A stretch of DNA of 64,000 nt, from positions 1,297 to 65,296 of the forward strand of contig CALNCU010000227.1 of NCBI GenBank assembly GCA_937875395.1, read 5' to 3'. Each line of letters opens with the position of its first letter. The stretch's first letter is position 1. Shown here in pieces: positions 6,487 through 64,000 of this stretch. The translations under genes were made by a program, and so were the position numbers. This DNA is from an uncultured Armatimonadetes bacterium (GTDB lineage: Bacteria > Armatimonadota > UBA5829 > DTJY01). The notes under the pieces are model-generated. The model ran no database searches. It worked only from the letters and a program-made list of their open reading frames with translations, and was not told the DNA's origin.

Positions 6487-6501
6487 TTAACCCCGTCCAG
6501 T

Positions 6502-38617: not shown

Positions 38618-38619
38618 TA

Positions 38620-40044: not shown

Positions 40045-40061
40045 ATATTAAGGAGAAGAAT

Positions 40062-40850
40062 ATGAGCAAAGCAAGAATTATGTACAATATGACGGTTGAA
40101 GAGGTACGGGAAGGCTTAAAAGAGATGAAAACCGTATTTCTGCCCATTGGCGTAGTAGAGCAGCACGGCTACCACATGCCTTTAAGTGTAGACATACATA
40201 ACGCCTACGAGATCTCCAAGATGGCATCAGAGCGGTGCGGCTGCTTTGTGGCCCCTCCAGTGCACTACAGCTTCTCCGGCGGAAGCCTCCCCGGTACCAT
40301 AAACATCCCTCCGCAGCTCTTTTCTATGGTTGTTATGGAGATATGCCACAGCCTTGTTGTGCAGGGGTTCAAAAATATTGCAATAATCCTTGGGCACGGA
40401 GGCACAGAGAACGTGCGCGCATCCTTTGACGCAGCAGAGAACTTTCAGCGGCTTAACCCGGATGTCTCCGGCGTCACCATCTCCGTGGTGCCGTTCTGGG
40501 AATTCTCCCCAACATACATGAAATCCTTTGAAGAGGGAGATTTCCACGCCGGCAAGTACGAAACATCCCTTATGCTCTACTGGAAGCCGGAACTTGTTAA
40601 AATGGAGAAGGCGCGCCTTGATTCGCCAGAAATAGTTAAAATGATGCGCACAGACCAGGATGCCTTCCTTGTAAAGACAAAGGCGGTAGATCACAAGTAC
40701 GTAATACCAAAGATGGTTCAGCACCCGGCAATAGAGGTGGGTGTCATGGGTAATTTTGAAGGAGCAAGCGCAGAGCTTGGCAAAAAAATTGCAGAAGAAT
40801 GCGCAGACAGCCTTGCCAATATGGTTTGGCAGTTGGAGGGGAATAAGTAA
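40062..40850 (+). CDS. creatininase-family amidohydrolase
   Basis: VEQHGYHMPLSVD...ILGHGGTEN...HAGKYETS metal-binding pattern of the creatinine amidohydrolase / ArfB / MftE family. AAGGAG RBS. Confidence 0.75.
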   Translation: MSKARIMYNMTVEEVREGLKEMKTVFLPIGVVEQHGYHMPLSVDIHNAYEISKMASERCGCFVAPPVHYSFSGGSLPGTINIPPQLFSMVVMEICHSLVVQGFKNIAIILGHGGTENVRASFDAAENFQRLNPDVSGVTISVVPFWEFSPTYMKSFEEGDFHAGKYETSLMLYWKPELVKMEKARLDSPEIVKMMRTDQDAFLVKTKAVDHKYVIPKMVQHPAIEVGVMGNFEGASAELGKKIAEECADSLANMVWQLEGNK

Positions 40851-40851
40851 A

Positions 40852-41898
40852 ATGGTTAAATGGGGAATTATAGGCTGCGGAGGCATTGCCCGCCGCAGGA
40901 TGATACCGGCGCTGCCGGAGTGTAAAAACAGCCAGGTTGTTGCAGTTATGGATGTAGACAGGGCTGCCGCAGATGAAGTTGCCGCGCAGATAGGCGCCCG
41001 CGCCTATTACACAGAGGCGGAACTGCTGCGCAACCCGGATGTTCAGGCGGTATACATAGCAACCCCCGTCTTTCTGCATCACGACCAGGTAATTGCAGCG
41101 GCAAAAGCGGGCAAGCACGTACTGGCAGAGAAGCCCATTGCGCTTGCAGTCTCTGAGGCGGAAGAGATGATTGCGGCCTGCAAAGAGGCCGGAGTCTACT
41201 TTACGGAAGGCTACATGATGAAGTTCCACAGCCTTAATGAAGCCGCGCGCAGCATGGTGGCAAAGGGAGAATTGGGCAACATAGTCTTTGCCCGGGCGCA
41301 GCTCTCCTGCTGGTACCCGGATATAAAGGGCGCATGGAGGCAGGACCCAAAGCTTGGCGGCGGCGGATCTCTTATGGATATGGCCACCCACTGCTATGAT
41401 CTTCTTCAATATATAATAGGCTCCAAGATAAAAGAGGTCTTTGCATACACGGATACCCTTACGTTTAAGTACCCGGTTGAAGACAGCTCCACCACCATGC
41501 TCAAGTTTGAGAACGGCGCGCATGCGGTTGTGGATGCCTTCTTCAACGTGCCGGATGCAGCAGGGCAGGCTCGGCTTGAGGTCTACGGGAACAAGGGGAG
41601 CATACAATCGGAAGGCACCATAGGGCAGATGCCCGGCGGACGGATGTATGCATATATCTCAAGCGATTCCAAAGACTACGATCCGCAGCAAAACAAGGAG
41701 AGCCTGGATGTTGTTAAAAGAGAGGTAATGCGCAAACCCGTAAATATGTACGCGCAGGAGATGGATTACCTCTCCGGTTGCATAGATAAGGGGAAGGCCC
41801 CCGCATTCTCCACGGCGGAGGAGGGGCTGTTCATTCTGAAGGTGGCAAAGGCCGCCTATGAGAGCAGCAGAACTGGAGCCGGCACAAAGGTAGAATAA
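40852..41898 (+). CDS. Gfo/Idh/MocA-family NAD(P)-dependent oxidoreductase (inositol/sugar dehydrogenase-like)
   Basis: MVKWGIIGCGGIARRR Rossmann start plus C-terminal Gfo/Idh/MocA domain. ATG is 1 nt after the creatininase-like stop. The ORF-track N-extension was rejected. Confidence 0.85.
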   Translation: MVKWGIIGCGGIARRRMIPALPECKNSQVVAVMDVDRAAADEVAAQIGARAYYTEAELLRNPDVQAVYIATPVFLHHDQVIAAAKAGKHVLAEKPIALAVSEAEEMIAACKEAGVYFTEGYMMKFHSLNEAARSMVAKGELGNIVFARAQLSCWYPDIKGAWRQDPKLGGGGSLMDMATHCYDLLQYIIGSKIKEVFAYTDTLTFKYPVEDSSTTMLKFENGAHAVVDAFFNVPDAAGQARLEVYGNKGSIQSEGTIGQMPGGRMYAYISSDSKDYDPQQNKESLDVVKREVMRKPVNMYAQEMDYLSGCIDKGKAPAFSTAEEGLFILKVAKAAYESSRTGAGTKVE

Positions 41899-49193: not shown

Positions 49194-50087
49194 TTATGAA
49201 GCGCGAAGGCTCGTCCGCACGGAATCAAAGTACTCAAAGCTTACAAGCAGCCGTGTGCAGAGGAGCGGTAAGCCGTGCAGAGGCTTGTCCCCGGCCTTCT
49301 TTACTACCTTTGTATAGAACGGTTTTCCAATGCGCAGTATGTCGTTCCATACAAAGCGGGCAAAGAATATGCCGGTTGACATGCGGGTTCTAAGGAATGG
49401 GCGCTTTCTAAGGTATATGACGGCACTTCTGCCGCTTGATTGCGCCTGCCTGCACAGCCGGGGCAGGTCCGTGCCCTTCCACCGGGTCTTATAGTGGTAG
49501 ACTATGGCTTTTGGGATGAACTTTTTAACAAGCCCCAGGTCTTTAAGCCTGTGTCCCAGTTCCAGGTCCTCCCAGCCGTATTCCGTAAAGTCTTCATCAA
49601 AGAGCCCCGCTTCAAGCAGGAACCTGCGCCGCACGGAGACGTTGCTGGTCCAGAAGAAGGATGTAGAGATATCTGCTATCTTGAACTTGGGGATAAGTTC
49701 CTTATCAAGATTGTCTATGTGGTTCACCCAGCCGTTTACCACGCTCCGCTGATCTGCCTGGTGTGCGGCCCAATGTTCTTTTAGCAGGTTTGCATCTGCA
49801 AAGGTATCATCGTCTATGAATAGGACTACTTCGCCCTCTGCGTTTCTTATCCCAAGGTTGCGGGCTTTGGAAAGTCCGGCGTTCTTCTCTTGCCGCAGGC
49901 ACTTTACCTGGCACTCATGCGCCAGTTCTTTTACCATATCGCTTGTGCCGTCCGTGCTTCCGTCATCTACAAGAACAAGTTCGTAGTCCTCAGGCGGAAA
50001 ATCAACCTTAAAAAGGGCTTCCAGGCACCGTTTAAGCAGGGCCTTCCGGTTGTAGCTGCAGATTTGAATGCTTATTTTTATTGACAT
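49194..50087 (-). CDS. family 2 glycosyltransferase
   Basis: ISIQICSYNRKALL...VDDGSTDGT...FIDDDT. Start ATG at 50087 (GGAG RBS), 17 nt after the msbA stop. The ORF-track N-extension would overlap msbA by 100 nt and was rejected. Confidence 0.8.
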   Translation of the reverse strand: MSIKISIQICSYNRKALLKRCLEALFKVDFPPEDYELVLVDDGSTDGTSDMVKELAHECQVKCLRQEKNAGLSKARNLGIRNAEGEVVLFIDDDTFADANLLKEHWAAHQADQRSVVNGWVNHIDNLDKELIPKFKIADISTSFFWTSNVSVRRRFLLEAGLFDEDFTEYGWEDLELGHRLKDLGLVKKFIPKAIVYHYKTRWKGTDLPRLCRQAQSSGRSAVIYLRKRPFLRTRMSTGIFFARFVWNDILRIGKPFYTKVVKKAGDKPLHGLPLLCTRLLVSFEYFDSVRTSLRAS

Positions 50088-50103
50088 GCTAATTCTCCGT
50101 TTA

Positions 50104-51945
50104 CTATTCGGCAAGAATAGGTTCTTTGTATTCTCTGTCATGGAACTGCATTTCATGGAGACGGCTGTAGAGCCCGCCCATTGCAAGCAGTTCTTTGTGG
50201 TTGCCATCCTCTACTATAGATCCACCGTCAAGCACAAGTATCCGGGTTGCATACTGGATTGTGCTTAATCTGTGGGCTATCACAAAAGTGGTTCTGCCCT
50301 GCATCAGCCTTTCAAGCGCCTGCTGAACCAGGTGTTCGCTCTCTGTATCCAGCGCGCTTGTGGCCTCATCAAGAACAAGAATTCTGGGATTTTTAAGCAG
50401 CGCCCTTGCAATTGCTATACGCTGCCGCTGCCCGCCGGAGAGACGTGTTCCGCGTTCCCCAACTACTGTATCAAGGCCGTCCGGCATGCTCTTTATAAAT
50501 TCAAGCGCGTTAGCCGCCCGGGCAGCCTCTATAACCTCTGCATCTGTTGCCCCAAGCTTGCCGGAGCGTATGTTATCTGCTATGGTGCCGCTGAAGAGGA
50601 GGGTCTCTTGCGGCACTATGCCAACTTGCTCTCTAAGCGATAATAACGTTACGCTGCAAAGGTCTTGTCCGTCTATAAGGATGCGCCCTGCCGTGGGGTT
50701 GTAGAACCGGGGAAGCAGGTTTACCAGCGTTGTCTTTCCGGCTCCGCTTGGCCCCACAAGAGCGATTACATCTCCCGGGCTTGCCTCAAAATTTATATTG
50801 GAAAGAACCGTCTTTTCTTCGTCGTCATAGTTGAATGACAGATTCTCAAAGCGGACATGTCCTTTAACGGGGGGCAGAGGCCGGGCATCCGGCACATCTT
50901 TAATGGTGGGCACGGTGTCCAGAAGTTCAAAGATGCGTTCCCCGGCGCCGTTGACTTTCTCTCTCAGCTGGTTCATTCTTGCAAGCCGGGTGAACTTGTT
51001 GCTGGCCTGTTGCGCCTGGAAAAGGAAGAACATGAATGCCGTTGGAAGCATGGCATTGCGAAGTACGGCTACTCCTCCTATAACCACGCCAAAGACCATT
51101 CCCAGAGTGGTTATAAACTCTATCCCCGGAGAGATTGTCTCTGCCACAAGAATCTGCCGCATGGCCTGTTTATAGTACATGCGATTGAGCTTGGCTACGC
51201 GCTTCTCTTCATAATCTTCCAGCGTGAACGATTGGATAACTTTAATCCCGGAGAGGAGCTCTGTAAGATGGCCGTTTAAGTCTCCCAGTTTATCCTGGAT
51301 GGCTATAACCAGTTTTTTTATAATGCGGCCCATCCCTGCAATTATAACGGCAACAAGCGGCGCCATTATAAGCGCTGCAAGGGTAAGCTTCCATGCTATC
51401 GCAAACATGGTTATCAGCGCTATGGTTATGGTGAGCGGGGCCTGTATAGTCTCTGCAAGGGGAGGGCCCAGCGAATCTTGCAGCACCGCCACATCCCATG
51501 TCATGCGTGTAAGAAGGTTTCCGCTTCTCTGCTTCTCAAACTGTGCGGGCGATAGTTTCAGCACATGGGAAAAGAGCGACTGTCGCAGATCCAGCGCTGT
51601 GCGGTATGAAAACTTTTGCATAAGATAAGTCTGCAGAGCTACGCTTGCGCATTTTATGAGGGTTATAGCAACTATTATTATGGAGATTCGTATAAGCAGC
51701 ATCATCTGGTCTGTGGTGCCTATAAGCTGCGTCAGATAGACTCCCACATCATAGTTGCCCACGCGCAGGCTGAGCCCGCGGCTTGCAAAGGATTCCGCCC
51801 CCAGGACAAGAAAGAGCAGGCTTGTATAAAGCACCGGGATGATGGCTGTTTCCAGCACCGTGGTGAGGGTCATAAATCCCAGGCCCAGGCCAAAAAATTT
51901 TCTGTGCGGGTGCGTATATTTTAATAGGCGCTGAAAAACGCTCAT
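50104..51945 (-). CDS. msbA: lipid A / lipid export ABC transporter (fused permease-ATPase, MsbA-like)
   Basis: 6-TM exporter domain plus NBD with GPSGAGKTT, LSGGQRQRIAIARAL, VLDEATSALD. 613 aa. Located within the lipid A gene cluster. Confidence 0.85.
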   Translation of the reverse strand: MSVFQRLLKYTHPHRKFFGLGLGFMTLTTVLETAIIPVLYTSLLFLVLGAESFASRGLSLRVGNYDVGVYLTQLIGTTDQMMLLIRISIIIVAITLIKCASVALQTYLMQKFSYRTALDLRQSLFSHVLKLSPAQFEKQRSGNLLTRMTWDVAVLQDSLGPPLAETIQAPLTITIALITMFAIAWKLTLAALIMAPLVAVIIAGMGRIIKKLVIAIQDKLGDLNGHLTELLSGIKVIQSFTLEDYEEKRVAKLNRMYYKQAMRQILVAETISPGIEFITTLGMVFGVVIGGVAVLRNAMLPTAFMFFLFQAQQASNKFTRLARMNQLREKVNGAGERIFELLDTVPTIKDVPDARPLPPVKGHVRFENLSFNYDDEEKTVLSNINFEASPGDVIALVGPSGAGKTTLVNLLPRFYNPTAGRILIDGQDLCSVTLLSLREQVGIVPQETLLFSGTIADNIRSGKLGATDAEVIEAARAANALEFIKSMPDGLDTVVGERGTRLSGGQRQRIAIARALLKNPRILVLDEATSALDTESEHLVQQALERLMQGRTTFVIAHRLSTIQYATRILVLDGGSIVEDGNHKELLAMGGLYSRLHEMQFHDREYKEPILAE

Positions 51946-52022: not shown

Positions 52023-53141
52023 TCAGCAGGGGATGTTGAACTCTTTTTGCAGGAACTCTGCCATGCGGGCGGATGCTCCCGGCCGGCCCATCCTCTCTAT
52101 GCCTATTCTGCCTCGTCTTTCACGTTCATCAGGGTTTTTAAGGAGCATAGATACCTCTGCCGCTATATCAGCAGGGGAATCTTTTACATAACGTACTGCG
52201 CCGCCAAGCATTCTTTCCTGATCTTTCATCCGTTTTACCGTTGTCTGCGGCCCTGTTCCGGCAAAGGATACCACCGGTTTTCCGCATCCGGCGGCCTGCT
52301 CGTTGGCAGTTCCGGCAAGGCCTATAAGAACGTCGGAGGATGCAACAATATCTTCAAAGCCGTCTTTTACTAATCTTACGGCATTGCGGCCCTTTTTTAG
52401 GACGGCGGATTCCAGCACCCATCCGTTGACTTTTACATATTCTGCCATACGTTCCGGCTCAAGCGAAGGAGCCAGTGCGCACACATAACAGGCACTCTCC
52501 GGAATCCTCTCTAAAGCTGCAAGTATGCGTGCAAAGTTTGCGTATGCCTCATCCCGGCTTCCGGGGAGTATGCCCACCATGGGGCTGTCTCCCAGCTTAA
52601 GGCCGCGTGGCGCAAGCTCATCCATAATGGGATTTCCCAAAAAGAGCGCATCAACGCCGTGCAATTTAAGGGTCTCCGCCGTATGGGCGTCACGAGTAAG
52701 CACCCGGCGCGCAAACTTCTTAAAGAGCCATTCTTCAAGCTTAAAATGCGGGTGGTTAAAATCTGACTTGGGCAGGGAGAGGTGGATTATATTTTTTTTA
52801 AAGGCAAGATACGCCAGAAACAGTAGAAACAGATCTCCCACAACAACCACGCAGTCTATGCAGTCCCTATGGGCTCTTAACGTTTTGTAGTACCGGATGT
52901 GCCTGAATGTATAGGGGATATCTTTAATAAAACCGGCAGCGCTCATGGTGGGGAACCCGCCGGACGGCGGAATTTGCCCCTCCGTAAGTACCGGTATTCC
53001 GTACTTAATATAGTCTCCGCCCACGGTAATCAGCGGCGCGCCGGAGATAGTAATGTCCGGGCACCTACCCATAAGGGCTTTGGCTATGGCGGCAGCCGAT
53101 CTATCTTCTCCATAACCGTTGCTTAGAAAACAGATGTGCAA
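52023..53141 (-). CDS. GT19-like glycosyltransferase, LpxB-related paralog
   Basis: GILPGSRDEAY and overall GT-B layout resemble LpxB, but the N-terminal GE-SGD motif is degenerate. TTG start with GGGAG RBS. Confidence 0.55.
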   Translation of the reverse strand: MHICFLSNGYGEDRSAAAIAKALMGRCPDITISGAPLITVGGDYIKYGIPVLTEGQIPPSGGFPTMSAAGFIKDIPYTFRHIRYYKTLRAHRDCIDCVVVVGDLFLLFLAYLAFKKNIIHLSLPKSDFNHPHFKLEEWLFKKFARRVLTRDAHTAETLKLHGVDALFLGNPIMDELAPRGLKLGDSPMVGILPGSRDEAYANFARILAALERIPESACYVCALAPSLEPERMAEYVKVNGWVLESAVLKKGRNAVRLVKDGFEDIVASSDVLIGLAGTANEQAAGCGKPVVSFAGTGPQTTVKRMKDQERMLGGAVRYVKDSPADIAAEVSMLLKNPDERERRGRIGIERMGRPGASARMAEFLQKEFNIPC

Positions 53142-53227
53142 CTTGATGCTCCCGTTTTGCCCCGCAGTTCTAACTGTGGGAATACACTCACTACTAGTGG
53201 CATGTAAACTTGAATTTGTCCCGGTAC

Positions 53228-53266
53228 CTTCGGCAGTGGCGCCTTCGGCTCTGCGACCGAAGTATC
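53228..53266. repeat. REP-like element, copy C (subtype 2)
   Basis: cttcggcagtggcgccttcggctctgcgaccgaagtatc, between the two GT19 paralogs. 2 mismatches to reverse-complemented copy F. Confidence 0.6.
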
Positions 53267-53333
53267 ACCCTCCGTAATTAATTTATCAAGCCACTATTGT
53301 GTTAATAAAAGATTATTGCCACAAATTTAAATT

Positions 53334-54527
53334 TTAATCGGCAAGGAGCGCTTCTGCAATAATGCCTGCTGCTCCTCTTTGCCTGGTAATCTCTGCCAGT
53401 TCGTGCGCAATATGCTCCCGCCTGCCGGAATTTGCCAGAAGATCTGCCGCTGCCGTTGCTACTCCGGCGGGGCGGAGGATTCCGCGCATCTCTGGCACTA
53501 TCTCTCGTCCGGCAATCATGTTGGGCAGAGAGACACACTTTACCTTCCTGTTCATGGCAAGGAACAGATTCCGTTTGATTAATCCCAGCGGGTAGACCTT
53601 TGGGAAGATGAACTCGGCCAGCCCGTCAAGGGGGATATATTCTGCCTTGTTGAGCGGCACCACAACAAGCATGGGCACATGCATTCCGGCTATCTGAAGG
53701 TTGTTTGTGCCGGGAATGGTTACAGCAAGGCTTGAGACGGATATGACTTCATGCTGGTTCTGGTACACTATTCTTACACGGCAGCCGGATTTGGCCAGGA
53801 TATCGCAAAAGCCATCGCCGGTCTCTATCTTAAAACCTTCCTTTTGCAAGAATTTAAGTATATGCGCACGGTCTGCAAAGGGTGAGAGCGCCACCACGGG
53901 ATATATCTCCGGGCGCATCTCCCAAAGCTTATTGGCCGAATGCAGCAGAAACGGGAGCATATATTCTATGTATGCAGGGCGGCTTCCCGGCAGAAATGTT
54001 ACCACGGTGGATTCCCGGCCGGAGCCTGTGAGCCGCCGGAGAATCTCCTCCCTGCCTGAGTTTATTTGAATACTGTCCAGACCCAGATGCCCCGCAACTG
54101 TAAGCTGATGGGGCAGGGCGCCTCTTTTTATGGATTCCTCCCGGGTGCGTTCGTCCGGGAGGAAGAACATGCTAAACTCCTTCACCCGGCGAACCTTGGA
54201 TACATACCCAAAGAGGGGGGCGCGCATCTTTTTTGCAATAAGCGCCGCATAAAACGTATCGCCGCCTAGAAAGAGCACCCTGTGCGGCTCTGCACATGAG
54301 GTTTTTTTATGCAGGTAAAGGTTTGAAAGCAGGCTTTTAACAGTTGTTACCCCGTCTATGCCGGGCTGCTTCTGCGCAAACTCTGCCTCCATGCCGCTTG
54401 CATACTGGCATGGGGTGATAACAAGGGTTACCCGCACGGATGCGTTGCGGGCTTTTAGCTCCCTTACAACGGGGGATACCCAGCCGGAGAGTTCTCCGGG
54501 CGAATTTGCGGTGATAAATACTTGCAT
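53334..54527 (-). CDS. lpxB: lipid-A-disaccharide synthase (GT19)
   Basis: N-terminal VFITANSPGELSGW (LpxB A-GE-SGD-like), LPGSRPAYIEYMLPF, NMIAGREIVPE. 397 aa. Confidence 0.75.
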   Translation of the reverse strand: MQVFITANSPGELSGWVSPVVRELKARNASVRVTLVITPCQYASGMEAEFAQKQPGIDGVTTVKSLLSNLYLHKKTSCAEPHRVLFLGGDTFYAALIAKKMRAPLFGYVSKVRRVKEFSMFFLPDERTREESIKRGALPHQLTVAGHLGLDSIQINSGREEILRRLTGSGRESTVVTFLPGSRPAYIEYMLPFLLHSANKLWEMRPEIYPVVALSPFADRAHILKFLQKEGFKIETGDGFCDILAKSGCRVRIVYQNQHEVISVSSLAVTIPGTNNLQIAGMHVPMLVVVPLNKAEYIPLDGLAEFIFPKVYPLGLIKRNLFLAMNRKVKCVSLPNMIAGREIVPEMRGILRPAGVATAAADLLANSGRREHIAHELAEITRQRGAAGIIAEALLAD

Positions 54528-54563: not shown

Positions 54564-55472
54564 TTAACGGGTTATGCCAAGCCCCTTCCTTAAACCCTCT
54601 GCGTGTGCATGTATAAGATAGAACTTTTTAAGCATGGGAGGCCAGGCGGGCAGCCTGCCGCCGGATGAGCTTATGTACTCTTCATTAAGGTAACGGCGGA
54701 CCCAGCCCATTCTTTCAAATAGTCTATCATACTTGAGGTACCGGAGTCTAACCATCCTCTTTGCCATAGCGGATGGATGCTTGCAGAAGAACTTTCCGGC
54801 ATACTCCGCCCGCTCTTTTCTAAATGCAGCCTGGCTTTGCAGCGAGTACTTTCCAACTTTGCAGTGGAGGACGTATGCCCGCCTGTTTTTTATGCGTTTC
54901 AGGCCGGATTCCATCAGGCGCGTGCCAAGTTCCACATCCTCCCATGCCCATACAAACTCTTCATCAAAGCCGCCTGCGCTCTCAAGGCTTTTCCTTGGGC
55001 ATGATGCGTTTGCGGTTATAAAATACACTCCTCCAAAATCCAGGAATGCCATGGTTTTAATATCCCAGCGCAAGAACGGAGGGGCCTGTATATCTTCCTT
55101 GCGGGTCAGGTTTATTATTGGGCCGTCCATAATAATGCCGGGGTTGGTTTTGTGGGTTTCAACATGTTCCCGTATATACCAGGGCGGGGCAAAGGCATCG
55201 CTGTCTATAAATATTACAATCTCTCCCGCGGCCTCTGTAATTGCCTTGTTCCGTGCTATGCTCGGCCCCAGGGTTTTGGTGTTTGCAATATAGGCAAGGC
55301 GGCAGGGAGGGTTTAGATTGCGGATCATCTCTGCCGTGCCGTCCGTTGAGCAATCATCCACAATCACTATTTCGTACTTGTCTTTGGGATAGTCCTGTTC
55401 AAAAAGATGCTCAAGGCATTTTTTAAGAAGGGCCTCTCTGTTATATGTGGCGATGACTACAGTTGCATCCAT
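54564..55472 (-). CDS. family 2 glycosyltransferase
   Basis: ATVVIATYNREALL...VDDCSTDGT...FIDSDA. ATG at 55472 with AAAGGAG RBS. The ORF-track N-extension was rejected. Confidence 0.75.
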   Translation of the reverse strand: MDATVVIATYNREALLKKCLEHLFEQDYPKDKYEIVIVDDCSTDGTAEMIRNLNPPCRLAYIANTKTLGPSIARNKAITEAAGEIVIFIDSDAFAPPWYIREHVETHKTNPGIIMDGPIINLTRKEDIQAPPFLRWDIKTMAFLDFGGVYFITANASCPRKSLESAGGFDEEFVWAWEDVELGTRLMESGLKRIKNRRAYVLHCKVGKYSLQSQAAFRKERAEYAGKFFCKHPSAMAKRMVRLRYLKYDRLFERMGWVRRYLNEEYISSSGGRLPAWPPMLKKFYLIHAHAEGLRKGLGITR

Positions 55473-55489
55473 CCGCCGTTGTACTCCTT

Positions 55490-56536
55490 TTAAGTTCTTT
55501 GTTCGGCCAGTTCCCGGGCTGCGCGGGCTACCTGGTTTTCGTCTATGGCAAGAAGGCATTTAAAGTAGCGGCAGTTCCCTTTTATGCAGGTATTGGTGCA
55601 GCCGGAATTTTCAACCCGTATCACCCTGCTTGGCACGCCGTAGGGCTTCCACCGGTTGGGGAAATCCTCTTTCAGGGCAAAGATAGATACCACCGGCACC
55701 CCCACCGCTGCCGCTATGTGCCCAGGCCCGGAATCCGGGCAGATAAGCACATCCATGGCGGAGATTACCCCGGCCAGCTGACGGAGCCCGGTCTTTCCGG
55801 CAATATTTAAAACTCCTCCGCCAATCTCTTCTTCTACCTTTGCGGCAAGTTCAACCTCTTTGGGGCCGCCCATAATCACCAGCCTGTACCCCGGCCAGCC
55901 GCAGATAATCTTTCCAGCGGCGGCAAATTTATCTGTAGGCCAAATCTGCGGATTAATATTCATGCCCTTGCCCAGGTGCATCCCTACTACTTTCTCACCG
56001 GGCTTAATTCCAAGCTCTTTTAAGAATTCTTTCCCGCCTGCCTTTTCTTCTGCCGTAAGCCAGATTCCGGGCAGGACTTCCGGGATGGAGAGCCCCAGGA
56101 TGCGGGCATAATCCAACTGGCAGTCTACCCAGTGGCTGGTTGTATCTCCATGCAGAGAGCGCACCCGCACGGCATGCGTAAACAGAAAACTGTATGTAAT
56201 TCGCTCTGCCTGCCCAACCCTTACGGGGATGCCGGCAAGCGCGCAAATCCATGCCTGCGCAGAAGTGCTCCAGGGCATAACCGCCAGATCAAACCGCCCG
56301 CGCCTTACAAGACTAAGCTTGCGTGCAAAGGAGGCGTCTGCGCCTGGTTCCAAAAAGCCGTCTGCAAAGGGGTTGTTTTCCATAACCGGGCGCATGGCAG
56401 GGTTGATCCAGCAGGTTACAGAGCAATTGGGATAACACTTCTTAAAGGTTTCCATAAGCGTGGATGTAAGCAGAAGATCTCCTACGCCGCCCCTGGTAAG
56501 CACAAAGAGAATTCTCTGTATCTGTGGTGATTTCAC
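55490..56536 (-). CDS. family 9 glycosyltransferase (heptosyltransferase-like)
   Basis: RILFVLTRGGVGDLLLTS N-terminus and CPDSGPGHIAAAVGVPVVSIF C-terminal GT9 motif. GTG start. Confidence 0.75.
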   Translation of the reverse strand: MKSPQIQRILFVLTRGGVGDLLLTSTLMETFKKCYPNCSVTCWINPAMRPVMENNPFADGFLEPGADASFARKLSLVRRGRFDLAVMPWSTSAQAWICALAGIPVRVGQAERITYSFLFTHAVRVRSLHGDTTSHWVDCQLDYARILGLSIPEVLPGIWLTAEEKAGGKEFLKELGIKPGEKVVGMHLGKGMNINPQIWPTDKFAAAGKIICGWPGYRLVIMGGPKEVELAAKVEEEIGGGVLNIAGKTGLRQLAGVISAMDVLICPDSGPGHIAAAVGVPVVSIFALKEDFPNRWKPYGVPSRVIRVENSGCTNTCIKGNCRYFKCLLAIDENQVARAARELAEQRT

Positions 56537-56601: not shown

Positions 56602-58173
56602 TTAACGTGCCCTGGAGGCCTTTCTATCAATCTTTCCTATAAGCCATTCTTTTTCATCAAAGCAGACTTTAAGCTTTATTCCGTGTTCTGCCAGTATTTT
56701 GGCATCATTTGGAGAGACTACCAGCGCGTAGTTGTCTGCACGCTTTGGAATTATCTTCATAAACTCTTTTAAATCACGGGCGACAACCATGTTGGGCCTG
56801 GAGTAGAAGAAGAGTCCGTACTCGCAGCGTATGCCATTAATAGTATACACAGGCCCCCCATCTGCAACCATGGCGGCATCTATTGCCGTCTGTTTTGGTG
56901 AGAAATACCGGTGCACCTTGGTGTACTCGTTAGGGAATAGGCAGAGCGTTGCCCCAAGCATAACCGCCATCACCGCCGGGCCCAGCCGGCTGTTTTTTAT
57001 GAGAGCCGCACCTGCAATGGAGTAGGCAACCAGTATTACTCCGGCAACCCATAAGGGATTTATGGCAGAGAGAACATGATTGGCGGCAGTGGCAGATTTT
57101 AAGCAGAAGAACGATGCAATCGCCGCCGCAATACCTATGGAAACTGTTGCAATCCCCTGAATCTTGCGGCTCTTTGCTTCTGTTACGGATGCGGCAATAA
57201 GTATGGCAAAAGCGGGGAGCATGGGAACTATGTAGTTGGGCAGCTTGGTCTTTGCTATGGAAAAAAGCACAAGCGGCGGAAGAATCCAGAGCCAGAGCAG
57301 GCGCCCCGCATCCCCCCTGTCCTTTATAAAAGATTTAGGCCACAGCAGCACCCACGGGAAGAATCCGGCGGCAATTATTACCAGATAGAAATACCAGGGG
57401 CCCTGGTGGTTGCAGACTGCCGTGGTGAGCCGCGCATACGTGTTTGTAGAGAGCGTAGGCTCAAGGAAGAGCGCGCCGTGGCGTTGAGCCTCTATAATAA
57501 ACCAGGGCATTACAACCGCGGCCCAGAGGAGTGCAGATATATATATTACCGGGTTAAGGAGCCTTTTGCGGTCGCTCCCGGTTATGGCGTACAGGAAGCA
57601 GACCATACAGGGCAACACAAGCCCCCACAGCCCTTTGTTCAGGGTGGCAAATCCGGCGGAGAGCCAGAATACAGGGTACAGGCGCCAGTCCTTCTTCTCC
57701 CACGCAACTATAAAGGCAAAGATTGCAAGCGTAACAAAAAAGGCCAGCGTGGCATCAAGGATTGCCAGCTTGCCCGTTGCAAAGAAGATAGGCGACGATG
57801 CAAGTATAAACCCTGCCACAATTCCGGTCCGCCTGTTAAAGAGCCGGGCGCCGAACGCCGCAGAAAGGTAGACCAGCCCAAATCCAAAGATTAGGGAGTT
57901 CAGCCGGGCGGAAACTTCAGATATCCCAAAAAGCTTAAAGCAGGCCGCCTGAATCCACATGCTGAGCGGCGCATGGATGAACCACGGTTCGTTGTGCCAG
58001 TAGAGCGTCCACCAGTCTTTGCGTCCAAGAAGCTCCTTTGCTACCTGGGAATAGAGCGCTTCGTCATTATCCGTGAGGGGATAGCCGCCCATCTTGAAGG
58101 CCAGCACCAGCAGCGTGAATACTCCAAGCGCCGCCCAGGGCAGATATTTATTTACCGATTCTGTTTTTTGCAT
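56602..58173 (-). CDS. GT83-family (ArnT/PMT_2-like) polyprenyl-phosphate-sugar-dependent glycosyltransferase
   Basis: PLTDNDEALYSQVAKELL...W...PLSMW periplasmic-loop motif of the ArnT/PMT_2 family plus ~12 TM helices. ATG at 58173; the 58200 codon is TTG. Confidence 0.75.
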   Translation of the reverse strand: MQKTESVNKYLPWAALGVFTLLVLAFKMGGYPLTDNDEALYSQVAKELLGRKDWWTLYWHNEPWFIHAPLSMWIQAACFKLFGISEVSARLNSLIFGFGLVYLSAAFGARLFNRRTGIVAGFILASSPIFFATGKLAILDATLAFFVTLAIFAFIVAWEKKDWRLYPVFWLSAGFATLNKGLWGLVLPCMVCFLYAITGSDRKRLLNPVIYISALLWAAVVMPWFIIEAQRHGALFLEPTLSTNTYARLTTAVCNHQGPWYFYLVIIAAGFFPWVLLWPKSFIKDRGDAGRLLWLWILPPLVLFSIAKTKLPNYIVPMLPAFAILIAASVTEAKSRKIQGIATVSIGIAAAIASFFCLKSATAANHVLSAINPLWVAGVILVAYSIAGAALIKNSRLGPAVMAVMLGATLCLFPNEYTKVHRYFSPKQTAIDAAMVADGGPVYTINGIRCEYGLFFYSRPNMVVARDLKEFMKIIPKRADNYALVVSPNDAKILAEHGIKLKVCFDEKEWLIGKIDRKASRAR

Positions 58174-58885
58174 TATTGTTGCCTTTAACCGAAAGCACAA
58201 GCTTTATGGGCATGGACATTGCTTCCAGTATCTTTTTAATAGACATTTTGCTTCTTCCTACCTGGCGGTCTGTAAAGACTGTGGAGACTTCTCCCAGCCG
58301 TGCCCCCTTCTTAAAGAGCCTGTATACAGATTCCGTCTGGAAGGCAAAACCCTGTGATATTATAGCATCCATATCAAGGTGTTTCAGGCAGTCCACTCTG
58401 TACGCCTTAAACCCGGCCATGGGATCTGTTAAGGGCAGGCCGGTTATTATGCGCACGTACATGCTGGAAATTCTGCTTAATATAAGCCTTCTGAGCGGCC
58501 AGTTGACTATAGTCGCCCGCCTGCCGGTGTATCTTGACCCAATTACAATATCTGCCTTATCCAGGGCGGCAATAAGCCTTGGAACATCGTCCGGGTTGTG
58601 CGACAGGTCTGCATCCATGCATACAAGAGCTTCGTAGCCGTTATCCATGGCGTACCGGAAGCCGTCCATATATGAGCCGGAGAAACTGCGCTTTCCTTCT
58701 CTCTCAAGCAGACGCACGCACGGGTCGCGTTGAGCTATGCCGCGCACTATCTCTGCCGTTTTATCCGGGGATGAATCATCTACTACAAGAATATCCGGCG
58801 GAGAGGGTAGATCCCGCAGCCGGGCTATAAGTTTTGCAATGTTATCTTCTTCATTAAGGGTGGGAACAACTATTAAACTCTTCAA
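58148..58885 (-). CDS. polyprenyl-phosphate sugar synthase-type GT2 (ArnC/Dpm1-like)
   Basis: LIVVPTLNEEDNI...VVDDSSPD...DADLSHNPDD...GSRY motifs of dolichyl/undecaprenyl-phosphate glycosyltransferases. TTG start. Confidence 0.8.
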   Translation of the reverse strand: MKSLIVVPTLNEEDNIAKLIARLRDLPSPPDILVVDDSSPDKTAEIVRGIAQRDPCVRLLEREGKRSFSGSYMDGFRYAMDNGYEALVCMDADLSHNPDDVPRLIAALDKADIVIGSRYTGRRATIVNWPLRRLILSRISSMYVRIITGLPLTDPMAGFKAYRVDCLKHLDMDAIISQGFAFQTESVYRLFKKGARLGEVSTVFTDRQVGRSKMSIKKILEAMSMPIKLVLSVKGNNNAKNRIGK

Positions 58886-58957
58886 TTTGTTTTTTTAAGG
58901 GCCGGATTTCGCGTGGGAAGCGCAGCCCGAATCTCCTTCTTAATCTACTGCAGAATA

Positions 58958-59584
58958 CTATTGCCGGTTAAGGGTTTTAGCTGCTTCTGCGGCTGTTGAT
59001 TCTTGCCGCCCGGGTCCACCGGCCGGGCTGCGTGGCTGCTTTGAAAACATGTTTACCAACAGATATGCCGTTAAAAGCCCAAATACGGCTCCCGCAGCTA
59101 CCTGAAACGGGTAGTGCGCATTAGCCTGCACTCTGGACCATGCTATGGCGCCGGCCCATGTGTACCATATAACAGTGGCTTTTGAAAACCGCAGTGACAG
59201 CAAAAATGCAAGCGCAATGGCACCTGCAGTATGCCCGCTTGGGAAGCCTTCGCCTCCGCCGCAAGGGCGCATGGCAATAGCCCCAAGGTCAAAGTGTTTA
59301 ATTAACTGGACAAAAAAGGTAACAATAATAAGTACTGTAAAAGCCAGCATCAGGTTACGCCAGTTTTTTATTGCTATTGCAGCAATTATAAGCGCCAGGT
59401 ATCCGCAGACCAGAAACAGCACGTTTCCCGTATCGCTCATGAAATGTGCAAAGTCCAGCACATGGCCCTTGGGGAATTTTGATAAGAAAAAGGCGGAGGA
59501 GATAATTACTGACAGGGCGATAGCCCCGCAATAGAGTGGATTCAGCCTATGTGCGCCTTTAAAACGATAATTCTGCAAGTTCAT
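58958..59584 (-). CDS. PAP2-family membrane phosphatase (candidate lipid A phosphatase LpxE/LpxF-like)
   Basis: PSGHTAGA and SRVQANAHYPFQVAAGAVFG acid-phosphatase motifs with 5-6 TM helices. Located in the lipid A locus. Confidence 0.75.
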   Translation of the reverse strand: MNLQNYRFKGAHRLNPLYCGAIALSVIISSAFFLSKFPKGHVLDFAHFMSDTGNVLFLVCGYLALIIAAIAIKNWRNLMLAFTVLIIVTFFVQLIKHFDLGAIAMRPCGGGEGFPSGHTAGAIALAFLLSLRFSKATVIWYTWAGAIAWSRVQANAHYPFQVAAGAVFGLLTAYLLVNMFSKQPRSPAGGPGRQESTAAEAAKTLNRQ

Positions 59585-59781
59585 CTGTCGCTCCTGTGGA
59601 CTGCTGCAAGGGACCGGATTTATAGCATAATAAGCGCAGAGCCTTCCTGTTATTCCCGGGATGATAAAGATTGCAGAGCTTATACAGTATACTCTTAAAC
59701 GGTGCTTAATGCAAGCAAAAAGTGGTCTGCCGCAGGTGAGCCCGGCACCGGTTGCCGGTGTAGTCGGAGGTGTTTATTCTT

Positions 59782-61452
59782 ATGATTATGAAAAAAGATA
59801 CTGTTAAAATGGCAGCGGCCGCCTGCAGCACAATGCGGCAATCCTGTGCAAGGTTTTGCCGGTCTAACGGTGATCTGCTGCTGATTCTGTTCTTTGCAGC
59901 GGCCGTGTTGCTTGCCAACATAGGGGTTGCCCGCGAGTTCTACTCCGACGATGAATACCTGTACGCCAAGATTGCCGCAGAGATGTTTCACAGGGGCGAT
60001 CTGTGGGTGCCCACGTGGCTGGGCAAGGCCGCCTTTTACAAGCCTCCCTTTACTTACTGGCTTATGATGCTGGGCTACTCCGTATTTGGAGTAAGCCTTA
60101 CTGCGGCCAGAATCTCCGTTGCCGCAACGGGGGTGTGCACGGCATGGCTTCTCTTTCTTCTTGGGCGACGGTTGTATGGCCGGGAAGGGGCACGGCTTGC
60201 CGGATTGCTCTTTATTACATCATTCGGTTATCTGTTTTACGGCAGGGTGGGGATGATGGATATGCCGTTTACCCTCTTTATTGCCGCCGCAATCTACTCT
60301 TTTTACCGGGCCTTTGAGGATGAATCCAAACAGCATGCAGCAGCGTTCTTTGTGCTTGCGGGGGCATCCACGCTTGTAAAGGGGCCGGTCTCTGCTGTGA
60401 TAATACTGATGTTTGGTGTTCTTATGCTGGTAATCTACGGACGTCCTGGACGCATCTTTAATGCCTGGGGCGCTGCGGGTATTGTTGCCGGTATTGCCCT
60501 GGTTTTGCTCTGGCCCGCCGCCATGTACTTCCGGGGTGAGTGGGGCGAGTGGTACAGGTTCTTTGTATTGCGGGAGAACCTGGGCAAGTTCACAGATCAA
60601 GCGTATTCCATCTTTAAGATGCTGCCGTATATTTTGCAGTACTTCTTTCCCTGGTCTCTGCTGTTTATTGCAGGTGCAGCGGTGCTCTTCCGGAGGGGAG
60701 CCTTAAGCGGCCGAAAATTTGTTTATCCGCTGTTTTGGATGCTTTGCGCAACGGCGGTCTTTATTATTCCGGCCGTAAAGCTTCCCTGGTATATGCTGCC
60801 GTCCCTGCCTGCGGCAGCCTTGTTTACGGCGGGGGCGTGGGTGGAGCTGAAAGGGAGCCGGCCTGCAAGGATTGGGGCGGCCGCTACCGTTATACCGGCG
60901 CTAATTTTACTGGCGGCATTACTTGTTGCGCTAAGGGTCTCCGGGGATGCCGGACTTTGCATTGTGCTTGCGGCGGCATTTGCGGTAAACTTGCTGCTCC
61001 TGCGCTTTTTGCTTGTAGGGGATGTTGCAAAAGGCGCGCTGGCTTACGGAGCCATGGTTATCCTTATAATCCTTGCCGGAGGATGTTTTACGTTTGACAG
61101 GCTCCCCGGAGAAGCAATTGCCATGATGGGTTCCCAAAGCGTGCCGGTAGGCGTTGTAAAAAAGCAGGTTTATCTATACAGCTACTACCTGGACAGACCG
61201 GTCAGGCAGATTTATGAGACTTCTCAGGCGGACGATATTTTATCACGCGGCGGCCGGGTGATTGTGGATGCGCACAACCTTGCAGAGTTTACCCGTGAAG
61301 GCAGCATCCAAAAGATTCATACGCTGCACAAGTGGCGTGAATGGAAGGAGACCATAATGCCCCGGGAAGCAGTTTGTGCCGTTGTTACAGGTAATATACT
61401 GCCTCTTCAGGAGCAGGTCTATCTTATAAAATCTGCAGAGTTGCGGCGTTAA
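59782..61452 (+). CDS. GT83-family (ArnT/PMT_2-like) glycosyltransferase, second copy
   Basis: YSDDEYLYAKIAAEMF...W...YKPPFTYW motif and ~13 TM helices. ATG at 59782, 12 nt after GGAGG. The 59770 codon is GTG. Confidence 0.75.
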   Translation: MIMKKDTVKMAAAACSTMRQSCARFCRSNGDLLLILFFAAAVLLANIGVAREFYSDDEYLYAKIAAEMFHRGDLWVPTWLGKAAFYKPPFTYWLMMLGYSVFGVSLTAARISVAATGVCTAWLLFLLGRRLYGREGARLAGLLFITSFGYLFYGRVGMMDMPFTLFIAAAIYSFYRAFEDESKQHAAAFFVLAGASTLVKGPVSAVIILMFGVLMLVIYGRPGRIFNAWGAAGIVAGIALVLLWPAAMYFRGEWGEWYRFFVLRENLGKFTDQAYSIFKMLPYILQYFFPWSLLFIAGAAVLFRRGALSGRKFVYPLFWMLCATAVFIIPAVKLPWYMLPSLPAAALFTAGAWVELKGSRPARIGAAATVIPALILLAALLVALRVSGDAGLCIVLAAAFAVNLLLLRFLLVGDVAKGALAYGAMVILIILAGGCFTFDRLPGEAIAMMGSQSVPVGVVKKQVYLYSYYLDRPVRQIYETSQADDILSRGGRVIVDAHNLAEFTREGSIQKIHTLHKWREWKETIMPREAVCAVVTGNILPLQEQVYLIKSAELRR

Positions 61453-62399
61453 GAGAGGCTATTGCGCACAAGGGCAAAGAGGAGCGGAAGCATTATCTCA
61501 TGGTGCCCGGTGAGAGAGTATGCGCTGCCGCTGCTCATGGTGGGGCGGTGCAGCACGTTTACCATAGGCCGGTAGTGCTGATTCATATCCATATTCACAG
61601 TGGTAAAATCTTTAACAGGCTCCTTTGAGAGGTTCCGGGCTGCATTTAGCGCTTTTACAAAGACCTCCGGGAGCACCACTGCCGAACCTATATTAAGGTA
61701 GACGCCTCCATCCCCCATATCGCCAATAACGGAGATAATAAGGCGGAAATCTGTAAAGCTGGCCTGCCCAAGCGCAGAACCGCTGGCTGTGGGGTGCATG
61801 TGTATGGTGTCGCCGCCTACTGCTATGTGCACGGTAACCGGCACTTCAAGCCGGGCCCCGGCGGCCAGAATGCTGTTTTTTTGGCAGGGGGCGTTCAGCT
61901 CTATAAGCTTTTTGCCAAGGGAGGCCCCCATGCCCATCCCGCACCCGGCGCCCTCTGTGATGGCTCCGTTCATGGCTTCTCCGGTCTCCCTTACCATGCC
62001 GAAGCGTCCGTTTTCAAGGCTTGCTGCCACGTCTTCAGAGGTTCGCCCTATTAGCGCCATCTCAAAATCGTGGATGCTGGCGCCGCCGTTCATGGCGACG
62101 GCGCTTATAATCCCCTGCTCCATAAAGTCTATAAGAAGGGGGGCGAGCCCGCATTTTACAACATGTCCGCCAATCCCCACTATTACAGGTTTCTTTTTTT
62201 TGTATGCGGTAACTATTGCCTGCACAACCTTGCGGAGTTCATTTGCCTTTAATATATCTGGCAGGCTGTCTAAAAATGCTCCAAGCCCCGCTCCAGGCTG
62301 GCAGACTTCTGCAAGTTTTGAGGAATCTACCTTGGTTGGGCGCTCTTCTATAGGGAAGGTATTTATGTTTTTTAGATCAGCAGGTGTATAGCGTTTCAT
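61449..62399 (-). CDS. hypothetical protein, possibly deoxyhypusine-synthase-like fold
   Basis: PVIVGIGGHVVKCGLAPLLIDFMEQGIISAVAMNGGASIHDFEMAL loosely resembles the DHS-like NAD-binding pattern. ATG at 62399 (MKRYTPADL); the ORF-track N-extension runs into the REP cluster. Weak call. Confidence 0.4.
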   Translation of the reverse strand: MKRYTPADLKNINTFPIEERPTKVDSSKLAEVCQPGAGLGAFLDSLPDILKANELRKVVQAIVTAYKKKKPVIVGIGGHVVKCGLAPLLIDFMEQGIISAVAMNGGASIHDFEMALIGRTSEDVAASLENGRFGMVRETGEAMNGAITEGAGCGMGMGASLGKKLIELNAPCQKNSILAAGARLEVPVTVHIAVGGDTIHMHPTASGSALGQASFTDFRLIISVIGDMGDGGVYLNIGSAVVLPEVFVKALNAARNLSKEPVKDFTTVNMDMNQHYRPMVNVLHRPTMSSGSAYSLTGHHEIMLPLLFALVRNSLS

Positions 62400-62445
62400 A
62401 ATTATAGTCCTGGCAGCACCCCGCCAAATTAATTTGCGGGTGGCG

Positions 62446-62478
62446 CTTCGGCTGCAAGTGTGAAGTACTGCTCCGAAG
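62446..62478. repeat. REP-like element, degenerate copy D
   Basis: cttcggctgcaagtgtgaagtactgctccgaag. Shares the CTTCGG...CCGAAG arms and a gaagta core. Confidence 0.4.
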
Positions 62479-62509
62479 CCTGGTGGCATGCAAATTTAAA
62501 TATGTCCTG

Positions 62510-62702: not shown

Positions 62703-64000
62703 TCACAGAGGGTTTTGTTCCGTACCGGCAGATTTTTTTGCCGGGCGAACAAGAGTCTTTTTTAAGTTCCCGCAGGATACCTCTACTTCAAATACTCCAA
62801 TGAATTCGGAATCCCAGGTGATGGCGGCGTCTGCCCGGCCGTTGCTGCCTGTAATTGCCTCACCCTTCTCCGGGGTTCCTCCTGAGACTTTTATAAAGAC
62901 CTTTGCATCCTTTACGGGGTTCTTAAAGGCATCCCAAACGGTGACGGTGACCTGGCTGGCGCACGGTTCTTCACCAGAGACTTCTTCCAGAAGAGGAGTC
63001 ATATTTGCAGGAGGCCCCGCCGCCACCTCTATCTGCCGGGTTGTAATTCTATCCTTATACCGTGCCGTAATGGTGTAGGCGCGGGCAGTGCGTGCGGTGA
63101 AGCTGCCGGACTGGTCTACAAAGATGCCTCCGCCCTCCACGCTCCATATGGTATCCTTTGCGCAGGATTCGCTTACAGGCTGGCCCGTGGCGGGGTCTAC
63201 AAGCAGAAGGCGGCAGATGCTCCCCGCTTCTACGGGGTGGGTTGGGACATCAATCTTTATCTCCGTGCCGGCGTCTCCCTTAAGCGGGGTGCCCAGTACC
63301 GCAACGGCATTTGCAACCGGCCGTTCCCTCCCATCCGACGGGCTGTTTAGAACGCCGTATGCCGTTGCCAGGGTTGTAGACCCGCCTCCATCTAAATTCA
63401 TGGCCTGGACACATCCTTTGCCCAGCATAAGCTTTGCAAGTTCTTGCAGAGTCATCCCTCTGCTTTGGGGCTGCCGGCCGTCAACCGTAACCATAAGCAC
63501 CTTTCCATCTGATGTAGTGCCAATGGCCGTCCGCGGGTGCGCTGCTGTGTATATACTTGTGCCGAAACCTTCTTCTTTGGCACTGTTTACAATTGTTCCG
63601 TCTTTTATAAGACGCGGCCCGCCGCCCACAGCCTCTACAATGCTGTTCCAATCTTTGCCGTCATCTGATTTTAAGTTGAAGAGGATTGTCAGGTTTGTAC
63701 CGGGCTTCAGGTTCTCCTCCAACCACTTTGCCCCGGCCCCTGCGCTGGAGAGGACAAGGGTATCTTCACCCAAGGGCGTGTTGCCTTTACTGGCGCGTAC
63801 TTCTTTAACAGTCCCGGATATGGGTTCGCCCGGCCTTGGGGGATGGCTGGTGCAGACCACAACCTCTGTTCCCTCTGCATTGGTATGCGTAGAAACTGCA
63901 AAGGCGCGGGTGTAGGCCACTATCTTGTTCTTGCCCCGAAGGCGGTTCACGCCGCCCAGGGGACGGGATGCGCCGCCCTCCGCCGTGACGGAGGCTTCAA
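62703..64000 (-). CDS. phosphodiester glycosidase family protein (NAGPA / DUF2233-like), 5'-truncated by window edge
   Basis: RTAIGTTSDGKVLMVTVDGRQPQSRGMTLQELAKLMLGKGCVQAMNLDGGGSTTL signature. The reading frame stays open upstream of the GTG at 63950 to the window end, so the N-terminus lies outside the window. Confidence 0.6.
   Translation of the reverse strand, partial: EASVTAEGGASRPLGGVNRLRGKNKIVAYTRAFAVSTHTNAEGTEVVVCTSHPPRPGEPISGTVKEVRASKGNTPLGEDTLVLSSAGAGAKWLEENLKPGTNLTILFNLKSDDGKDWNSIVEAVGGGPRLIKDGTIVNSAKEEGFGTSIYTAAHPRTAIGTTSDGKVLMVTVDGRQPQSRGMTLQELAKLMLGKGCVQAMNLDGGGSTTLATAYGVLNSPSDGRERPVANAVAVLGTPLKGDAGTEIKIDVPTHPVEAGSICRLLLVDPATGQPVSESCAKDTIWSVEGGGIFVDQSGSFTARTARAYTITARYKDRITTRQIEVAAGPPANMTPLLEEVSGEEPCASQVTVTVWDAFKNPVKDAKVFIKVSGGTPEKGEAITGSNGRADAAITWDSEFIGVFEVEVSCGNLKKTLVRPAKKSAGTEQNPL

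Follow-up and report, generated by a model that had tools for sequence, protein, structure and literature searches.

What is a group of four genes, encoding two ArnT-like glycosyltransferases of family GT83, a glycosyltransferase of family GT2 and a membrane phosphatase of the PAP2 family, doing in the genome of an uncultured Armatimonadetes bacterium? The genes lie near one end of a stretch of 64,000 nucleotides (nt) of contig CALNCU010000227.1, which we call the window, and a preliminary description made from the letters alone had proposed that they strip phosphates from lipid A and attach sugars carried by a polyprenyl-phosphate donor. To address this question, we followed each protein, its neighbors and its relatives in other genomes and metagenomes. 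The module proves to be real and coherent, and the proposed reading of it is the best available: we put at roughly 58% the probability that these proteins remodel lipopolysaccharide (LPS) in the periplasm, by dephosphorylation followed by glycosylation from a polyprenyl-phosphate sugar. The parts of the module are the following.

56602-58173, minus strand: GT83-1, an ArnT-like GT-C glycosyltransferase of 523 amino acids (aa), with about 12 transmembrane helices and a C-terminal periplasmic domain of about 110 aa.
58148-58885, minus strand: GT2, a predicted DPM1/Ppm1-type polyprenyl-phosphate hexose synthase, 245 aa long and without a transmembrane helix; its start codon is TTG.
58958-59584, minus strand: PAP2, a membrane phosphatase of 208 aa with about 6 transmembrane helices.
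59585-59781: the intergenic region of 197 nt between the divergent PAP2 and GT83-2 genes, presumed to hold the promoters of both units.
59782-61452, plus strand: GT83-2, a second, divergent ArnT-like GT-C glycosyltransferase of 556 aa.

All four open reading frames stand where the preliminary description had placed them, and the Joint Genome Institute (JGI), which called genes independently on a metagenome contig of 99% identity, arrived at equal protein lengths (208, 245 and 523 aa, and 556 aa). The family assignments are upheld by Pfam with E-values far beyond chance: PMT_2 matches GT83-1 with 78.2 bits (1e-21) and GT83-2 with 67.1 bits (2.7e-18) against a cut-off of 26.1 bits, Glycos_transf_2 matches GT2 at 1.3e-30 and the PAP2 domain is found at 1.5e-14. 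The gene order, which had been given as lying wholly on the minus strand, is right for PAP2-GT2-GT83-1 and wrong for GT83-2, which is on the plus strand and divergently transcribed. As had been noticed, GT2 overlaps GT83-1; the 26 nt that they have in common comprise the 3' end of GT2 with its stop and the start of GT83-1, and PAP2 lies upstream, 72 nt from GT2. An AGGAG precedes the ATG of PAP2 by 7 nt and a GGAGG precedes that of GT83-2 by about 12 nt, and a scan for promoters and terminators remained at the level of the shuffled background (19 versus 14.9±3.8 and 26 versus 18.4±3.9). The second GT83 was rightly called divergent from the first: the two are only 27% identical and thus are old paralogues, with no recent duplication behind them. 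The 64-kb window holds no other gene of the PAP2 or GT83 kind. Horizontal transfer of the module is not indicated, because its composition (GC 0.48-0.53, and 0.50-0.59 at third codon positions, GC3, in the four genes) is close to that of the housekeeping genes of the window (GC 0.51-0.54, GC3 0.54-0.59), PAP2 and GT2 being slightly lower.

What kind of transferases are the two GT83 proteins? The only match to either among PDB sequences is the ArnT of Cupriavidus (5EZM; 8.5e-31 for GT83-1 and 4e-19 for GT83-2). The AlphaFold (AF2) model of GT83-1, of high confidence (predicted local distance difference test, pLDDT, 94.3; predicted template-modeling score, pTM, 0.93), was matched by Foldseek to ArnT 5F15 with template-modeling (TM) scores of 0.83/0.80 and an E-value of 1e-22, the C-terminal periplasmic domain included. 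Against OST, ALG, Pmt and Emb structures the scores fall to 0.35-0.58, and to 0.35-0.50 for the Pmt structures. For GT83-2 the ArnT fold was judged from sequence only, by the match to 5EZM. Residues D37/E38, D140, R248 and Y314 of GT83-1 correspond to D55/E56, D158, R270 and Y345 of ArnT and are invariant across GT83-1 orthologues, and GT83-2 keeps the DE pair, the D of the DM pair and the KLPWY motif, with Lys in place of R270.

In other respects both proteins depart from ArnT. Their identity to it is 22-27%, and the ArnT equivalog model NF009784 scores 125 bits for GT83-1 and 110 bits for GT83-2 against a cut-off of 567, the match spanning some 350-400 positions. ArnT is defined by two loop-1 motifs, RYA and YFEKP, with an essential Tyr and Lys (PMC5377068). 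The two motifs read LYS and WFIHA in GT83-1, and LYA and AFYKP, a partial match, in GT83-2. The ArnT pair E84/K85 thus becomes I66/H67 in GT83-1, where residues 63-69 (PWFIHAP) are invariant in the orthogroup while the consensus of the wider family is PWFxKPP; the lysine on which ArnT depends has been lost in this clade specifically, by a change of Lys to His. The zinc ligands of ArnT (E84/H265/H267) are absent from both proteins. Because the catalytic residues are kept, the equivalog cut-off is missed, the loop-1 motifs are altered and the zinc ligands are absent, we regard GT83-1 and GT83-2 as competent-looking enzymes of predicted ArnT fold, neither of which is ArnT itself.

The probable supplier of their donor is the GT2 protein, whose closest relative in the PDB is the dolichyl-phosphate mannose synthase (DPMS) of P. 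furiosus (5MLZ, 8.2e-26), ahead of ArnC (4e-11) and the GtrB-like sll0501 (6e-6). When GT2 is aligned to 5MLZ, it keeps E12, D39, R63, the DAD motif, H94 and F177, as well as R117, R131 and S135, which bind the polyprenyl phosphate, and R202 and K208 of the A-loop, the roles of these residues being those given in the DPMS structure paper (PMC5526996). Three features of DPMS are replaced: Q93 by S, K178 by A and G68-L69 of the guanine loop by S-F. No hydrophobic or transmembrane segment was found in the protein, and it falls below the equivalog cut-offs for ArnC (52 versus 529 bits), PpgS (58 versus 370) and AglJ (63 versus 325). The catalytic subunits of human DPM1 and of Ppm1 are likewise free of transmembrane helices and about 245 aa long. 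Thus, since DPMS is the best match, the key residues are kept and there is no transmembrane segment, GT2 is in all probability a DPM1/Ppm1-type enzyme that synthesizes polyprenyl-phosphate hexose. It has the DAD, phosphate-binding and A-loop residues in common with the synthases of this class (PfDPMS, human-type DPM1 and actinobacterial Ppm1) and differs from them in its partners, which here are ArnT-like and not of the PMT/PimE type.

Could these enzymes nevertheless form a classical ArnT/ArnC system, which confers polymyxin resistance by adding aminoarabinose (4-amino-4-deoxy-L-arabinose, L-Ara4N)? Automatic annotations do name relatives "Ara4N transferase-like", and the best matches in the PDB and on plasmids are ArnTs, at 22-27% identity (a tblastn search of plasmids returned only ArnT homologues at about 27% identity and generic PAP2s). 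However, GT2 resembles dolichyl-phosphate mannose synthase more closely than ArnC and lacks the transmembrane helices of the latter; ArnA, ArnD and ArnE/F were not found in the window, which holds no arn operon; and the sole DegT aminotransferase (36681-37946), at a distance of 19 kb, reaches 230 versus 631 on the ArnB model. With the ArnT, ArnC and ArnB equivalog tests failed, the motifs altered and the arn genes missing, the probability of such a system is next to negligible and we treat it as excluded. The preliminary description was therefore correct in reporting no arnA/arnB-type gene, since no ArnA or ArnB equivalog occurs within the window, and in arguing that the donor sugar is probably not L-Ara4N.

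The phosphatase carries the motifs K96-x9-R106-P107, P115-S-G-H118 and S150-R-x5-H157-x3-Q161. The nucleophilic His, both Arg and the Lys are thus present, while the spacing from Lys to RP and the last Asp depart from the canonical pattern KX6RP - PSGH - SRX5HX3D. Q161, which stands for the canonical Asp, is invariant in the close subfamily, and more distant homologues retain Asp. A crude hydropathy plot gives 5 segments, which, read with the helices of an AF2 model, we interpret as about 6 helices that place the motifs at the periplasmic face. The best sequence match in the PDB is LpxE of Aquifex aeolicus (6EBU, 2.3e-5), and the next two are acid phosphatases (2-3e-3). Like this enzyme and other lipid A 1-phosphatases, PAP2 is small, all-helical and membrane-embedded, with a predicted active site that faces the periplasm; it differs from Aquifex LpxE by the x9 instead of x6 spacing and by Gln for the Asp of the C3 motif, and the match is too weak to assign a substrate. 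A variant C3 motif is tolerated among LpxEs (PMC6581854).

What ties these proteins to LPS is the company that they keep. Downstream of GT83-1, the minus strand continues with the following genes.

55490-56536, minus strand: a GT9 heptosyltransferase-like protein, directly downstream of GT83-1 (Glyco_transf_9, 1.3e-24).
54564-55472, minus strand: a GT2 glycosyltransferase, distinct from the one of the module.
53334-54527, minus strand: an LpxB-like protein (PF02684 at only 50 bits; TIGR00215 at 48 bits versus a cut-off of 190).
52023-53141, minus strand: an LpxB-related protein of TIGR03492 (276 bits).
50104-51945, minus strand: an MsbA-like ABC exporter (507 bits to TIGR02203).

Beyond the exporter, the same strand holds another GT2 and then an FkbM methyltransferase, the gaps between the genes of the cluster being short, and further GT9, GT4 and GT2 genes lie nearby on the opposite strand. 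Given these neighbors, the module stands at the head of a cluster of about 18 kb for the assembly of LPS core and lipid A. Counted with the GT9, GT2, LpxB-like and MsbA genes alone, the LPS cluster on the minus strand measures 11 kb. This context is conserved. No GT83-1 orthologue was found in 185,579 GTDB species genomes; orthologues occur in metagenomes only, as 14 clusters with E < 1e-120 among 5.8 billion, and those at 47-54% identity consistently lie in GT9-GT2-LpxB-like-MsbA clusters. In all five contexts that were read, the next gene is GT9, followed by GT2 and the LpxB-like gene, and MsbA is also present in four of them. The order GT9-GT2-LpxB-like-TIGR03492-MsbA of the window is repeated in loci L001, L004, L005 and L006. 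L002 and L003, in which GT83-1 is 54% identical, keep a DPM1-like GT2 (66%) that overlaps GT83-1 as well as the divergent GT83-2 (47%), and the arrangement in L002, GT83-2/GT2/GT83-1/GT9, is that of the window. The adjoining cluster and its conservation thus bear out the link to LPS that had been proposed for the module.

But does the phosphatase belong to the same process as the transferases? A metagenome scan with a profile of the PAP2 subfamily yielded 5 distant loci, too few for statistics, and in 3 of these a GT83-like gene is divergently adjacent (L100, 7975-10306; L101, 3-1639; L103, 1-1838). These are unrelated metagenome contigs, and they show the same head-to-head geometry as PAP2 and GT83-2 in the window. 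In fact, the two activities can be found in one polypeptide: three protein clusters (P0015, P0016 and P0028; loci L087-L090) are fusions of 728-751 aa in which an N-terminal PAP2 domain is joined to an ArnT-like GT-C. The transferase domain of P0016 has its nearer relative in GT83-1, with 35% identity and 187 bits compared with 114 bits for GT83-2; the N-terminal domain of P0016 matches PAP2 of the window at 3e-12. This protein, labeled Deltaproteobacteria bacterium GWD2_42_10, is found on at least 24 contigs as a solo gene between cox and glycolysis genes, a context that is not related to LPS; it therefore supports the coupling of PAP2 to GT83 and not a particular acceptor. A PAP2 homologue with 42% identity (P0048) adjoins orthologues of the LpxB-like pair of the window (40%/50%) and lpxC-fabZ-lpxA-lpxI, and the contexts of P0050 and of a Paracoccus plasmid PAP2 were uninformative. 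Because there are few GT83-like genes per genome, three adjacencies in five together with the fusions go well beyond chance, and they point to joint action of the phosphatase and a GT83-1-like transferase. The coupling of the phosphatase to a GT83-type enzyme, which was part of the original proposal, is thus backed by the fusions, by the recurrent adjacency and by the PAP2 homologue beside the lpx genes.

To explain these results we propose the following sequence of events. At the cytoplasmic face of the membrane, the soluble GT2 would load a hexose from a nucleotide sugar onto undecaprenyl (polyprenyl) phosphate. Mannose would be the default guess for this hexose, and a hexuronic acid, as with RgtE, is possible. 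The lipid-linked sugar would then be flipped across the membrane. MsbA would flip core-lipid A to the outer face, where the periplasm-facing PAP2 would remove a lipid A phosphate, the favored site being position 1 because LpxE is the best PDB sequence match of PAP2. GT83-1, which is in the same operon as GT2 and translationally coupled to it, would place the sugar where the phosphate had been or on an inner-core residue close by, and GT83-2 would then carry out another transfer of a different kind, using that polyprenyl-phosphate sugar or a further one. The protein families, the catalytic residues, the operon structure, the LPS context and the coupling of PAP2 to GT83 are observed; which sugar is moved, to what acceptor and position, and in which order the steps run is what we infer from the parts.

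Such a scheme has precedents. In Rhizobium, Mesorhizobium, Caulobacter and Aquifex, LpxE or LpxF acts first and RgtF or RgtD follows, with RgtE as donor synthase (PMC9393093, PMC6581854); the two transferases serve two positions, RgtF position 1 and RgtD position 4' (PMC9393093). This rhizobial/Aquifex logic seems to be the closest precedent for the module, the likeness being one of parts and layout: both consist of a membrane PAP2, a lipid-sugar synthase of family GT2 and ArnT-like GT-C transferases that act after MsbA, and in Oligotropha rgtE, lpxE and rgtF are adjacent (OCA5_c19730-50; PMC7663294), so that the GT-C gene is clustered with GT2 and PAP2, as are PAP2-GT2-GT83-1 and the divergent GT83-2 here. 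The module differs from these systems by its single PAP2, its mannose-synthase-like GT2, its host, which belongs to the Armatimonadota and not to the Pseudomonadota or Aquificota, and the His of GT83-1 in place of the loop-1 Lys. As for the Rgt galacturonosyltransferases, no NCBIfam model matched, and RgtE is described only as a bactoprenyl-phosphate galacturonic acid transferase of GT family 2 (PMC7663294). ArnT-like GT-C enzymes and GT2 lipid-sugar synthases also decorate lipid A in Francisella (FlmK/FlmF2/LpxF) and Bordetella (LgmA/B/C); there, the GT2s are ArnC-like and have transmembrane helices, the amino sugars are added to a retained phosphate and a deacetylase is included. The module has no deacetylase.

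Several observations weigh against phosphate removal followed by glycosylation. The essential Lys of the ArnT YFEKP motif is His in GT83-1, a single PAP2 would have to serve two transferases, and no gene for a flippase or for nucleotide-sugar synthesis is evident in the module. The NCBIfam model for LpxE (NF007159) gives PAP2 15.7 bits against a cut-off of 177, LpxEs being too divergent for this to decide. In fact, LpxE-type enzymes are not recognizable by sequence, with about 14-17% identity among them, and they also hydrolyze undecaprenyl pyrophosphate (C55-PP; PMC6581854); the PAP2 model has the fold of membrane PAP2 enzymes in general, and a fold search with it does not separate PgpB, LpxE and G6PC1 (all with E of about 5e-3 to 1e-2). 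PAP2 is missing from L002, a locus that is syntenic in other respects, from L003, and from L004 and L006, and is thus an accessory part of the module. Finally, GT83-2 orthologues with 33-44% identity occur as solo genes amid unrelated neighbors.

Some of these points would be explained if GT83-1, GT83-2 or both glycosylated the inner core, in the manner of RgtA/B/C, by adding a sugar to 3-deoxy-D-manno-octulosonate (Kdo) or another core residue, while PAP2 was a general phosphatase for C55-PP or phosphatidylglycerophosphate that merely sits in the cluster. In L004, L005 and L006, GT83-1 lies between two GT9 genes of the core heptosyltransferase-like kind, without the DPM1-like GT2, PAP2 or GT83-2 nearby, and the absence of PAP2 from L002, the multiple substrates of LpxE-type enzymes and a fold as near to PgpB as to LpxE all suit this explanation. 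However, the PAP2-GT83 fusions and the repeated adjacency argue for one common substrate, a Dpm1-type pathway regenerates undecaprenyl phosphate directly and has no need of a C55-PP phosphatase, and a PAP2 homologue adjoins genes of the Raetz pathway. We thus consider core glycosylation less likely, though plausible and the most serious contender. The solitary GT83-2 orthologues, which show no LPS context, raise another question: could a Ppm1-type synthase feed a PMT-like GT-C, as in Actinomycetota, for protein O-mannosylation or for the glycosylation of another envelope polymer or lipoglycan? This would most plausibly concern GT83-2, which has a weak match of 29.9 bits to the bacterial Pmt equivalog NF058602, and it would be in keeping with the DPM1/Ppm1-like, helix-free GT2 and with a host phylum affiliated to the Terrabacteria. 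Yet the cut-off of that model is 800 bits and GT83-1 does not match it at all; the ArnT model fits both proteins better (110-125 bits), the GT83-1 model is far closer to ArnT than to Pmt structures (0.83 versus 0.35-0.50) and the LPS context of GT83-1 is conserved. Protein mannosylation of the Ppm1/Pmt kind is unlikely for GT83-1 and conceivable for GT83-2, and O-mannosylation or the glycosylation of another polymer as the function of the module is distinctly improbable. Removal of a phosphate from lipid A or the inner core, with attachment of a lipid-carried sugar, stays the reading that we prefer.

The window contains other genes that deserve mention. Two adjacent, divergent LpxB-type genes are found in the window (52023-54527, minus strand); in a relative, the pair (L091, 1068-3595; 40%/50% identity) directly borders on lpxC-fabZ-lpxA-lpxI, and a 739-aa fusion of GT2 and LpxB takes its place in L002 (13199-15418) and L003. 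This lineage may have its lipid A disaccharide synthase arranged in an unusual way. The longest open reading frames of the two GT2 genes of the cluster (54564-55559 and 49194-50207, minus strand) overlap the genes upstream by 70 and 104 nt, and the true starts are probably internal ATGs, since the products called by JGI are shorter, at 302 and 299 aa. At the module's other end, a GSU2086-family gene, deoxyhypusine-synthase-like (61449-62489, minus strand; NF052581, 405 bits), converges on GT83-2 and overlaps its stop by 4 nt with its own 3' end. It is followed by a gene (62703-63950, minus strand) whose product joins an NAGPA-type phosphodiester glycosidase domain (1.8e-41) to a Big_1 Ig-like domain at the C-terminus and could act on phosphodiester-linked envelope sugars. 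Farther away, an operon on the plus strand (36681-41898) encodes a DegT-family sugar aminotransferase, which is below the PseC and ArnB cut-offs, a putative cyclase, a 492-aa AAC(3)-like N-acetyltransferase, a creatininase-like hydrolase and a Gfo/Idh/MocA oxidoreductase; it looks like amino-sugar or aminocyclitol tailoring, with no evident link to the module. A recA-recX-rny-ymdB block typical of Terrabacteria occupies 3312-7530 (minus strand). Its RecA comes closest, at 71%, to that of a genome of the Capsulimonadaceae (Armatimonadota), the other matches being Bacillota and Actinomycetota at 65-69%, and the PAP2 protein of the module is 100% identical to one in NCBI that carries the label Armatimonadetes. 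A stretch of lower GC (0.44-0.49) at about 12-18 kb carries a 958-aa N-acetylglucosaminidase that is GH84-like and has a CBM9, as well as an AraC regulator.

The outer-membrane remodeling that we propose is of an ordinary, already known kind, and no new type of biology comes with it. What is modestly new is the host phylum, the coupling of a DPM1-type synthase without transmembrane helices to an ArnT-fold enzyme, the clade-specific change of Lys to His, the Asp-to-Gln subfamily of PAP2 and the wide recurrence of PAP2-GT83 pairs and fusions. We found no description in the literature of the lipid A of Armatimonadota, a diderm phylum affiliated to the Terrabacteria. It is possible, if still short of probable, that these bacteria make a phosphate-depleted, hexosylated and perhaps mannosylated lipid A by means of a DPM1/Ppm1-type synthase and an ArnT-like enzyme with His for the loop-1 Lys, and that PAP2-GT83 pairs and fusions mark a general swap of phosphate for sugar beyond the Pseudomonadota and Aquificota. 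If the proposed function is correct, phosphate-to-sugar replacement of the Rgt/LpxE type on lipid A reaches the Armatimonadota, and this uncultured lineage would be predicted to have a lipid A of low charge, probably with poor recognition by TLR4 and resistance to cationic peptides. The compact cassette of three genes (PAP2, soluble GT2 and GT-C) is of potential use for lipid A engineering in E. coli, and the recurrent PAP2-GT83 pairs and fusions would provide a simple genomic marker of such remodeling in metagenomes.

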